The notes beneath the pieces are model-generated. The model searched no databases. It was not told the origin of the DNA and saw nothing but the letters and a program-made list of their open reading frames with translations. A stretch of DNA of 64,000 nt from Balanoglossus misakiensis (taxonomy: Eukaryota; Animalia; Hemichordata), in contig CM082589.2 of the NCBI GenBank assembly GCA_040954595.2, forward strand, positions 7,127,186-7,191,185, in the 5' to 3' direction. Both the position numbers and the translations under genes were made by a program. Position 1 is the stretch's first letter, and each line of letters starts with the position of its first letter. Positions 6,001 through 8,966 of the stretch are shown piece after piece.

Positions 6001-8966
6001 GCGTTCAAACCTAATCCTCCGATAGCTCCCACGGGGAGCTCGTCAGCTGCCCCTCCCGGGACCGTCTCCTTCCCCCGAGAATCCGGGGGAATTTTTGCGG
6101 AATGTTGAAGTAATGGGAATGTGGGTTCTTACCTTACCATAGCCAATGACAGGACGGCACCATAGAGAGTCGGGCAGGAACAGGGAAATGGACAGGAAGT
6201 GGATGGAACGATATGAAGAGAGAGAGAAAGAAAGGCATTCAATTAGCATGCAGACATGGTACAGATTCACAGAGTTTGGTGATTTTCTCAGATTAGCCTG
6301 GCTTGCTGTGAAACAAGTAGTTATTCTGCTTGATGAAATATTCCAGAATGATGGATGTTAATTCTCTGAGAACATCTTGAAATCACTAGCTCATTATATT
6401 AACCCTAACACTACCAAGTCAGTTGAGACTGGTTTGATTTCCAGGGTGCCTAGAATCCGGGCTCCCAGGCCTATTAGACTGCCAAGTGCGTGTTAATCAG
6501 TAGGGCCTATGCAAGACCCTCAGACCAATACAGTACAAACCAGTGCGATTTGGTACATTTTACAGGGGGTTCAGACTGCCAAGTGTGTCTAAGCACATAT
6601 GAGAGCCATGTCAAGACAGTCAAAATACGTTTTAGAAGAAAAAGTGGCAAATACGTATTTTAAGGGACTTGACACTCTAAACAGGTATGACAATCAGTAG
6701 TATTAGGGATAAACAACATCTCAAAACATCCCGGATTTCACAATTAAATTTTGTCGTTCAATGAACAAAGACCCCTATTTCATTTTTACCTTGTTTACTC
6801 GGTTTACTAGTTTCCCTGCTGGTTTTCCTCGGTGGTTCGTTCTGGTTCAATATGGCATCCAAAGCTCTCTCAAAATTAAACTTGTAGTGCACAATGTTAT
6901 CAATGATGATGTGGTCCGGTACTGTATCACCGACTATGTTGCGAATTTCGTCAAGACATGATTGTAGTTTTGCTGAAAACACACACAAAAAAAGACTGAG
7001 TCAAATTCGGTTAAAACATGACACTTGTATGCAATGCTCTGATGGTATCAAAGAGGACAATGAAAACATCTGGCAGTTTTGGGAAATGCATTTTTTTCCA
7101 GAATGTAAGCCACCAAAAAAGGGAGCTGGTGTAGTTAGTGGACAAGAATTTACCACTGGGTAATACCATTATTTTTAGGGGCCAAGGGGTGGGGTATGGT
7201 ATAGTTGGTGGACACGAATTTACCCCTGGGTGATACCATTGTTTTTAGGGGCCAAGGGTTGGGCTATGGTATAGTTAGTGGACATGAATTTACCACTGGG
7301 TGATACCATTATTTTTAGGGGCCAAGGGGTGGGGTATGAGGGTCACAGGCAATAGTGTGAAGTGAATAATAAGGCAATCCCACGGCTAAGCTGAAACACT
7401 GGTCACCACGGTGACGCAGTGGTATTTACCTTCGTCCACTGGATTCAGTTGAGGTCTCTGATAGTTCCTGGAATCACTCAGCCCTGTATCTTCATCACTT
7501 TCCTCCTCCTCCTCTTCCTCCTCGTTGATGCTCTGTTCTTTCATGAAGGATGACAGGAGCTGTTCGTGGTGACTTCGCTGGAACAGAAACTGGTCCGCTA
7601 TCATGAAATAGAAAAAAGGTGTGTTTAAGTTAGCTTTCGGTGTCCTCGCTGTCAAGTGAATGAATGAATGAATGAATAATATTGAATGAATGAACTTTAG
7701 CTCATAATGACTGCAGTGCTTACCTGTAGACGGGGACACACAGTAGGAATCATCTTCCACTGAGTGACCATACACATCGTCATATCCAGCGTAATCTATC
7801 AAATAGAAATTTTGAAAACAATTACTCTGATTAAAAATACGTATGGAAGCAGTGTGCATTCTAAGAGCTTGAAAATCACGCATAGTGCAGTACTGATTAG
7901 TATTAACTTTTTTCCCCATTGATTAGTAACGTTTCTTTTGACCGTATAATAGACAGTGAAAACGATTACAGTATCCTTGACAAAATATATACCATGACCA
8001 AGCAAAAATTCCTTAAGTTCCAAAGTTCACTGAGCATCTGGTCACATGAAATAAATAAAAAAACGCTCTTTCGCTATTTTCTTGTAGTTAGCTCTCAGCA
8101 ATTGTATTTAACATGGAAATCTCTCCCTTAATTAATGAAGTAGAGTGCAGGTTGAACTGTCCCTTATATTATTTGAAGGAACAAGTGGTCAGACAAGAGT
8201 ATCTGTTACCATATGGTGTCCTGCAGAAGGACTTTGGAATGTTCCCATGACATATTTGTTGTTGATAAAAAAATCTAATAATTCGAATTTATTCAAAACG
8301 TCCCGTATGGACTAGAGTCCAGAATACGGTTCATTGGTAAATTTTGTGTCGTTTTCATGTGAAATAGGAACACACGGCGAAAACTACATCAAGGTTAATG
8401 ATCCGATTTCAAAGTGATCGTGGTGATATTGACAGGTCATACACTCCGAAGAGTGCGACCGACCACCACAGTTGTGTCTGCATGATGTATAGTACACGCA
8501 ACAATTCTCGATGGACTGGGAGTAAACTGAACATCAGCGAAGATTCAAGCCCGATCGGAGCTATGAACTGCACGTACTTGTAAATGATAGGGTCGATGAC
8601 ATTGGTGAAATTTGGCACGTATCGCCTTGTAAGTTGCAGCTTTTCAATATTGAACTTTCAGTGTTCAGGCCACTGAGTTCTTCGGAAACGAATCAGTCAT
8701 TCCGCGCGATCGTTCGGTTATTTCTTCCCACTGGTGAATACATGATGTTGCAAATGTGCGTGCAGAGATCAACCTCCGAGTAACGATAATACAGTAACTT
8801 GAAGGAAGCCCTACGCACGCTTTGTTTGTACACACACGTACATGTACGTACGTACGCAGCTGCAAAACCGATCGTACCCGGCGATCGGACCCTACAATGC
8901 ATACATCCAAACGTGATGCCTACCTTCATCATAATTTGTATTCCTAATATTTCTATGCCTCGACAT
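1..8966 (-). CDS. HBS1L: HBS1-like translational GTPase (ribosome rescue, partner of Pelota), 3'-partial
   Basis: Phase-consistent GT-AG exons: 8924-8966 ([14 protein letters not shown]), 7724-7795 ([16 protein letters not shown]), 7430-7597, 6790-6972 (HBS1 N-terminal helical domain), 3350-3500, 3030-3183, 1802-2040 ([10 protein letters not shown]1; [15 protein letters not shown]), 1166-1283 ([13 protein letters not shown]), 525-746 (AVNKLD G4), 185-302 ([11 protein letters not shown]5), 1-25. The N-terminus matches the HBS1L MARHRNVR...SVEDDYCISPST signature, distinguishing it from eEF1A and eRF3. Confidence 0.95.
885..969. repeat. Two-copy ~42-bp tandem duplication in an HBS1L intron
   Basis: tatggtca(c/g)actc..tag.tag.t.aaaattatccactctag occurs twice in tandem. 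Confidence 0.7.
1558..1768. mobile_element. MITE with TACTGTAAAA...TTTTACAGTA ends (copy 1)
   Basis: Terminal inverted repeats; a closely similar copy lies at 63008-63216. Confidence 0.8.
2706..3019. mobile_element. piggyBac-type MITE (TTAA-CCC ends), copy 1
   Basis: ttaaccctaa...ttaaggttaa; a highly similar ~310-bp copy lies at 6399-6712 in the same gene. Confidence 0.75.
3876..4055. mobile_element. Tc1/mariner-type MITE (TACAGTCAAACC...GGTTTGACTGTA)
   Basis: Perfect 12-bp inverted ends including the TA target site; internal gtggccacc/ggtcacctctata subrepeats. Confidence 0.75.
4151..6127 (-). CDS. HBS1L: SKI7-type (HBS1LV3-like) alternative exon of HBS1L
   Basis: 1977-nt stop-free, Ser/Gly/Leu-rich exon between HBS1L exons 4 and 5. 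It ends in [10 protein letters not shown]...FSY...[25 protein letters not shown], matching the PFDFxxPSPDD exosome-binding motif of Ski7/HBS1LV3. In-frame phase-1 acceptor AG at 6129-6128; phase-1 donor GTAAGA at 4150-4145. Confidence 0.85.
6399..6712. mobile_element. piggyBac-type MITE, copy 2
   Basis: ttaaccctaacactac...gtagtattaggg; paralog of 2706-3019. Confidence 0.75.
7128..7339. repeat. Minisatellite, 3 copies of ~69 bp
   Basis: ggt.tagtt.gtggaca.gaatttacc.ctgggt.ataccatt.tttttaggggccaaggg..gggtat occurs three times. Confidence 0.85.

Follow-up and report, generated by a model that had tools for sequence, protein, structure and literature searches.

The window analyzed here, a stretch of 64,000 nt from contig CM082589.2 of the hemichordate Balanoglossus misakiensis, carries the HBS1L gene on the minus strand of its positions 1-9000. 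The products at stake are HBS1, a ribosome-rescue protein, and SKI7, an RNA-decay adaptor encoded with the help of an additional exon between exons 4 and 5. The entrance of this SKI7 exon is formed by the 8-nt core AAG|GTAAG (6128..6135; all coordinates of the gene refer to the minus strand), in which three splicing signals overlap: a first acceptor AG (AG1, 6134-6133), a consensus donor starting at 6132, and a second acceptor AG (AG2, 6129-6128). Comparative sequence evidence indicates that this core is a real, deeply conserved splice element. We lean towards a reading in which AG1 would serve as an acceptor, and the donor built into it would allow the SKI7 exon to be removed in a separate splicing round to yield the HBS1 mRNA. 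A splice switch at this place had been proposed in a first-pass annotation of the window, and that interpretation is partly supported by the present analysis.

Structure of the SKI7 exon entrance

Upstream of the core, a zone of 152 nt (6135..6286), flanked by AGs at 6288-6287 and 6134-6133, is free of AG. A predicted distant branch point, TGCTAAT (6242..6248, with its A at 6243), recognized by its match to the consensus, stands 109 nt before AG1 and is followed by TGCC and a tract of 81% pyrimidines (6160..6237). The word TGGC lies 13 nt before the AG1 junction (6142..6145), and the zone ends in TATGGTAAG|GTAAG|AACCC. The positions given for the zone, the branch-point candidate, the pyrimidine tract and the tandem AGs in the first-pass annotation were all confirmed. 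At nine constitutive HBS1L acceptors the AG-free zones span 21-81 nt, compared with 152 nt here, and runs of at least 150 nt account for six of the approximately 6,280 gaps between AGs in the window (both strands counted), and simple-repeat arrays contain four of these six.

The long AG-free zone, with a branch-like word and a pyrimidine tract at its 5' end, is of the kind that characterizes distant-branch-point exons. Two features of a recursive site are present as well, namely, an AG directly before a strong donor and a consensus donor that would stand at the junction after the first step. The site is not a NAGNAG tandem acceptor, since the two AGs are 5 nt apart and shift the frame. Entry at AG2 starts the SKI7 exon at 6127 and opens 717 codons. 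Entry at AG1 is out of frame, as had been noted earlier, and without re-splicing it meets a premature stop 40 codons in (6011..6013). The earlier statement that splicing of exon 4, which ends in CAAG, to AG1 rebuilds a consensus donor is correct in that such a donor stands at the junction; the word "rebuilds" has to be dropped, because the 9-mer AAG|GTAAGA is already present in the unspliced RNA, and AG1 splicing would keep this donor rather than create it.

Gene models agree with the proposal that AG2 is the in-frame acceptor. In Ptychodera flava RefSeq proteins XP_070556539.1 and XP_070556538.1, the aligned exon 4 is followed by ESTFP, equivalent to the EPTFP encoded from AG2 in the window (KQ|ESTFP and KQ|EPTFP, respectively). 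Similarly, Mya arenaria XP_052775545.1 reads RSQ|ELDD, and the comparison locus L014 has an equal junction at its AG2. According to these models, in which read support is not visible, AG2 is the SKI7 acceptor. The other acceptor considered in the first-pass annotation, a CAG before 6046, was rejected: it is in frame, but the 27 codons upstream of 6046 align with Ptychodera.

Further candidates were considered in the same region. A symmetric open exon of 168 nt (6138-6305), running from a CAG at 6306 to the upstream GTAAG, is possible; it is not kept in other lineages and has no Pfam match, and none was found for a 104-codon frame across the AG-free zone of the window. A coding exon ending at the donor was rejected, as no frame is open across all lineages and the spacing is shifted by 1 nt in L014 and L025. 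A hairpin between TGCC and TGGC was also rejected, the predicted pairing probability being at most 0.01 in the six pairs tested.

Conservation of the element among animals

Loci for comparison were collected with a pattern of the exosome-binding Patch-4 motif, derived from an alignment of SKI7 C-termini. It identified 37 loci in metagenome contigs, with no vertebrate or insect DNA among them; the acceptor sequence was not used, and the motif lies 0.7-1.9 kb from the element. AAG|GTAAG stands at the exact start of the phase-1 SKI7 frame in 12 of the 37 loci (L001, L008, L009, L010, L014, L016, L018, L019, L023, L025, L036, and L037). Because L009/L010 and L014/L016 are near twins, the 12 loci represent 10 lineages, or 11 with the window, as counted from the pairwise identity table of SKI7 frames; between carrier lineages these frames are 22-39% identical. 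Three of the 25 non-carrier loci were set aside, two whose frames run off the contig start (L028 and L035) and one with only 62 nt upstream, in which the frame looks cut (L003). The core is missing from two assessable lineages, L002 and a clade of 21 loci.

All eight positions of the core are invariant in the 11 lineages, and an A follows in 10 of them. The doubled GTAAGGTAAG is found in only seven, so that the motif conservation put forward as a check in the first-pass annotation holds in full for the core and in part for its duplication. In every carrier AG1 is the first AG after an AG-free zone, which measures 65-230 nt in eight other fully visible lineages and at least 51 and at least 23 nt in two that are cut by contig ends. 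TGCC opens the pyrimidine tract in seven of the nine lineages covering it, usually just 3' of a branch-like word (directly before TGCC in L008, L014, L019, L023, and L025). TGGC occurs at most 16 nt from AG1 in 9/11 lineages, compared with 589 of 10,397 background AGs (5.7%). Both AGs are AAG in all 11 lineages, with an equal GTAAG context in seven. Entry at AG1 is always out of frame and leads to a stop after 3-78 codons. The upstream exon, where visible, ends in AG (six of six lineages, giving AAG or GAG before GTAAGA), and a consensus donor would therefore stand at the AG1 junction.

As a control, 22 of 8,868 other stop codons were found in the same context as the element. Among 938 first AGs that follow at least 50 AG-free nucleotides, 11 continue as GTRAG; the element itself accounts for 10 of them, leaving 1 among the 928 others. 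The binomial probability of 10 carriers among 12 lineages, the window excluded, is about 6e-25, a value that measures conservation among lineages sharing ancestry. A sequence profile of the element matched only its training loci and their near twins, nothing comparable being matched in L002 or in the 21-locus clade; the truncated L036 was missed by it.

In the GTPase tree, L001 and L023 fall among spiralians. L018 and L037 are probably non-bilaterian, because their branches lie beyond the rows of cnidarians plus bilaterians (support 95/96, in a midpoint-rooted tree with few columns filled). L014/L016 are nearest to an oyster and a clam, and L019 is nearest to two corals. The carriers include a hemichordate, spiralians, a coral-like locus, and two probably non-bilaterian loci.

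The core is absent from all members of the 21-locus clade (L004-L007, L011-L013, L015, L017, L020-L022, L024, L026, L027, and L029-L034). An ordinary pyrimidine-AG acceptor is found there, followed in most loci after 39-49 nt by a conserved start codon; the spacer between acceptor and start is not frame-preserving in all loci. No HBS1 N-terminal or GTPase exons were found in this clade, in which three loci offer more than 5 kb upstream and long introns could hide other exons. These loci have the look of an independent SKI7 gene from which the switch has been lost. In several of these loci a second AG lies 8 or 11 nt past the acceptor and precedes codons resembling the hemichordate exon start ESTF. 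This second AG is possibly a decayed form of the switch.

Probable two-step splicing and competing explanations

In the reading towards which we lean, the distant branch point and the pyrimidine tract would permit the first splicing step without an AG, and the spliceosome would then scan on to two context-matched AAGs, 5 nt apart. Choice of AG2 would use up the donor and commit the transcript to SKI7. Choice of AG1 would join exon 4 to the GTAAG donor, which would then be spliced to exon 5 (3350..3500), the phase-1 acceptor that is the shared target of every skipping route, to give the HBS1 mRNA. The reverse order would lead to an equal product, the donor being joined to exon 5 first and the short upstream intron then removed at AG1. 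Failed re-splicing would leave the premature stop and probably result in decay. As described for distant branch points (PMC1431707; here and below, papers are cited for the passages covered), the first step proceeds without an AG, the first AG is found by scanning, and AGs less than 12 nt apart compete, with the preceding base deciding. Some use of AG1 would be expected on these grounds, because scanning meets AG1 first and both AGs are AAG. Also in favor of this reading are the conservation of the core, its presence irrespective of whether the SKI7 exon carries a donor of its own or is terminal, and its absence from the 21-locus clade, in which SKI7 seems to have a separate start codon.

A number of observations weigh against two-step splicing. 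Known recursive-splicing exons (RS-exons) are short and mostly lie in long introns (PMC8605326), with a nearby downstream donor, whereas the SKI7 exon has 1,977 nt (about 2 kb) and its upstream intron 657 nt in the window and 0.15-0.66 kb over the lineages. The next GTRAG after the element is a weak site at 5872, and several lineages are without a phase-1 donor after Patch 4, at odds with a short RS-exon. In deuterostomes such donors are repressed by the exon junction complex, although strong ones escape (PMC6224609). A is the commonest base at position -3 of the HBS1L donors (6/9), so that AAG alone is no sign of acceptor function. The second staggered GTAAG, present in seven of the 11 lineages, and TGGC would both be lost upon AG1 splicing, which argues for a role on the unspliced RNA. 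L002 (85-125) retains the branch-like word, TGCC and the pyrimidine tract, and yet the core is absent before its SKI7 frame. Finally, a search by gene name of supplements on human recursive and dual sites (including PMC10156609, PMC6110456, and PMC13622621), in which coordinate-only tables would not reveal HBS1L, gave no row that could be placed at the SKI7 acceptor. HBS1L was not found in four of the five papers concerned; in the fifth, among the rows listed, it is named with a site in an intron of 9,340 nt. This intron presumably lies near the 3' end of the gene, so the site is probably not the SKI7 acceptor.

The most serious competitor of the two-step route, though in our opinion an unlikely one, is a decoy function, in which the U1 small nuclear ribonucleoprotein would bind the donor-like word without cleavage and hide AG2, exon 4 being spliced straight to exon 5. 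Binding might also suppress a SKI7 poly(A) site, and AG1 would merely be positions -2/-1 of the U1 site. The eight invariant bases, which equal the donor consensus (7-9/11 matches to the U1-pairing consensus), are accounted for as well by this explanation as by two-step splicing, and the second staggered site is explained better. Moreover, the U1 site exists already in unspliced RNA and is kept in lineages with a terminal SKI7 exon (L018, L019, L036, and L037). However, scanning should meet AG1 first, in the same context as AG2, which would make AG1 hard to avoid. In addition GAG, the weakest and least usable acceptor trinucleotide, occurs at AG1 in none of the 11 lineages.

It is improbable, in our estimate, that the element is a valve for unproductive splicing, in which AG1, a downstream alternative donor of exon 4, or a poison exon would generate RNAs with premature stops that are destroyed, so that the dose of SKI7 or HBS1 would be tuned without an isoform switch. 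Such a valve would be in line with the early stops after AG1 entry in all lineages, and a fair acceptor at 6307-6306 could open an exon of 168 or 173 nt ending at these donors; but L018, in which the stretch from the upstream donor to AG1 contains no AG, leaves no room for an upstream exon, and L037 hardly any; not one of the frames ahead of the donor is open in every lineage, and a frameshifting AG1 would need no perfect donor behind it. The last explanation, a functionless chance match or recent 5-nt duplication at an ordinary alternative acceptor, fits the tandem look of GTAAGGTAAG when the window is viewed alone, but is refuted by the invariance of the core among lineages with such divergent SKI7 proteins and can practically be dismissed.

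Structure of the HBS1L gene

The HBS1L exons (8966-8924, 7795-7724, 7597-7430, 6972-6790, 3500-3350, 3183-3030, 2040-1802, 1283-1166, and 746-525) form an open joined frame, and the assignment of the gene is based on this frame together with domain matches. HBS1_N (PF08938, E 1e-9) and GTP_EFTU (PF00009) were matched in these exons, with HBS1_N upstream of the SKI7 exon and the translational GTPase downstream. The locus thereby has the composition of a metazoan HBS1L/SKI7 gene, that is, HBS1_N and GTPase exons and a Patch-4-like exon in frame with exon 4. Exon 4 (6790..6972) encodes the HBS1_N domain, ends in CAAG in phase 1 before the donor GTAAAA, and is 75% identical to Ptychodera over 61 ungapped codons, the GTPase part being 93% identical over 234 columns. 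In the GTPase tree of 31 rows, from which L025 was excluded as too short, the window adjoins Ptychodera flava (98/90) within the hemichordate group (100/99).

The SKI7 exon (4151..6127) is a symmetric (phase 1-1) cassette; with it included, the joined frame is open to exon 9, and both of its junctions match XP_070556539.1. The 717-codon frame between exons 4 and 5 was identified as SKI7 by its C-terminal end, where the Patch-4-like motif PFDFxxPSPDD (4176..4229; motif definition in PMC6143672) matches human HBS1L isoform 2 in the exosome structure PDB 9g8m (E 4e-7). In a word-based search against proteins, the SKI7 frame as a whole gave no match; its C-terminal part alone retrieved Ptychodera.

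A phase-1 donor, AGA|GTAAGA (4145..4150), is the predicted site from which the SKI7 exon is spliced on to exon 5. Phase-1 donors exist at the equivalent place in L001, L009/L010, L023, L025, and L028, and not in L014, L018, L019, and L037; the element is thus present both with an exon-borne donor and with a terminal SKI7 exon. Read-through beyond this donor would add a tail (3975..4150) open to the stop at 3977-3975, a possible short SKI7 form. Neither AATAAA nor ATTAAA occurs before exon 5, where a single AATACA is found at 3553. The in-frame donor at 4150, the stop 252 nt past the motif and the lack of these two signals distinguish the exon from the vertebrate-type terminal SKI7 exon, and because of this donor it probably is not only a terminal exon.

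From the same donor we predict a third protein, SKI7-GTPase, encoded by the window gene. Metazoan SKI7 has been regarded as GTPase-less (PMC6143672), whereas in the window the Patch-4 motif precedes the GTPase, as it does in 18 of 38 long HBS1 protein records, all of them gene models (37 with 754-2400 residues, plus P0002; among the 18, the Lingula match is partial and two records are isoforms of one gene). Six further records end after Patch-4, and 14 have no match. The fused layout occurs in hemichordates, echinoderms, annelids, a nemertean, a priapulid, myriapods, and one partial brachiopod match. In Acanthaster, SKI7-included and SKI7-skipped gene models are both present.

Several repeats accompany the gene. 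Two direct copies of a 300-nt sequence, 93% identical and probably derived from a mobile element (2706-3005 and 6399-6698), flank the SKI7 exon together with the block of exons 5-6; looping-out of the SKI7 exon through them was rejected, the repeats being direct and not inverted. A 70-nt three-copy array occupies 7127-7338, a perfect 36-nt inverted repeat with an 8-nt spacer lies upstream of HBS1L at 9858-9937, and a 355-nt four-copy array at 12361-13785. Elsewhere in the window, an 88-nt satellite of 28% GC extends over about 14 kb (39975-54269) in blocks of alternating orientation.

Relation to known systems

Alternative splicing of HBS1 and SKI7 is known in animals, plants, and fungi (PMC5389692, PMC7924785, PMC6143672, and PMC7491326), the described forms being human HBS1LV3, zebrafish ski7, a plant cassette exon, and alternative acceptors in ascomycetes. 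The passages covered in these papers describe isoforms and no cis element at the animal acceptor, and more generally no cis element controlling the HBS1/SKI7 choice is named in the passages covered. The ratio itself shifts markedly over development: zebrafish ski7 exceeds hbs1l more than 10-fold in mature eggs and falls 2-fold short of it in larvae (PMC7924785). Among titles and abstract starts of the literature on HBS1/SKI7 or recursive splicing the element was not found; the splice-pattern survey of Marshall et al. 2018, outside this scope, may be relevant to the element as well as to the fused form.

The closest parallel is provided by RS-exons, such as those of Drosophila Ubx and annotated human ones (PMC8605326, PMC6224609), in which the 5' end of an alternative exon likewise has an acceptor immediately followed by a consensus donor, and the exon is skipped by re-splicing. 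There, both outcomes start from a single acceptor, and they differ in which of two donors is taken. In contrast, the recursive acceptor of the SKI7 element does not lead into the coding frame, and positions +4/+5 of the donor supply the AG of the coding acceptor, so that selection of the acceptor may already settle the outcome; the SKI7 exon also differs in its length of 1-2 kb and its short upstream intron. Intrasplicing or reverse-order recursion in protein 4.1R and EPB41L5 (bioRxiv 10.1101/159350) and dual-specific AGGT sites (PMC10809524) are similar in that an AG|GT word may serve in either role, donor or acceptor, and an alternative terminal exon can be removed through it; the passages covered, however, mention neither an in-frame tandem acceptor within the donor nor conservation among animal phyla. 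Distant-branch-point exons (PMC1431707) share the 150-nt AG-free zone, with a branch-like word and pyrimidine tract at its 5' side, before an alternative exon, whereas at the SKI7 exon the AG reached first beyond the zone leads out of frame and has a donor behind it.

A broader scenario, which we offer tentatively, is that this arrangement arose in early animals. HBS1 mRNA would be made by obligatory two-step splicing via the SKI7 acceptor, and the 8-nt word would turn a choice between acceptors 5 nt apart into the master switch between ribosome rescue and recruitment of the cytoplasmic exosome, a switch that second-step factors, U1, and also the exon junction complex could read. A SKI7-plus-GTPase third protein would then be made in many invertebrates, and the system may persist in vertebrates. 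A related question, raised in PMC6143672, concerns the time at which the GTPase domain was lost from animal SKI7, and the in-frame donor at 4150 bears on it. With its 8 nt conserved in different animal phyla, the element is a target in which point changes can separate the three roles. If the two-step route is true, the productive acceptor lies inside the recursive donor, an architecture that was not found in the literature searched, and the element would be a phylum-spanning, conserved recursive site whose use determines which of two functional proteins is made, rather than one that aids the removal of a long intron.

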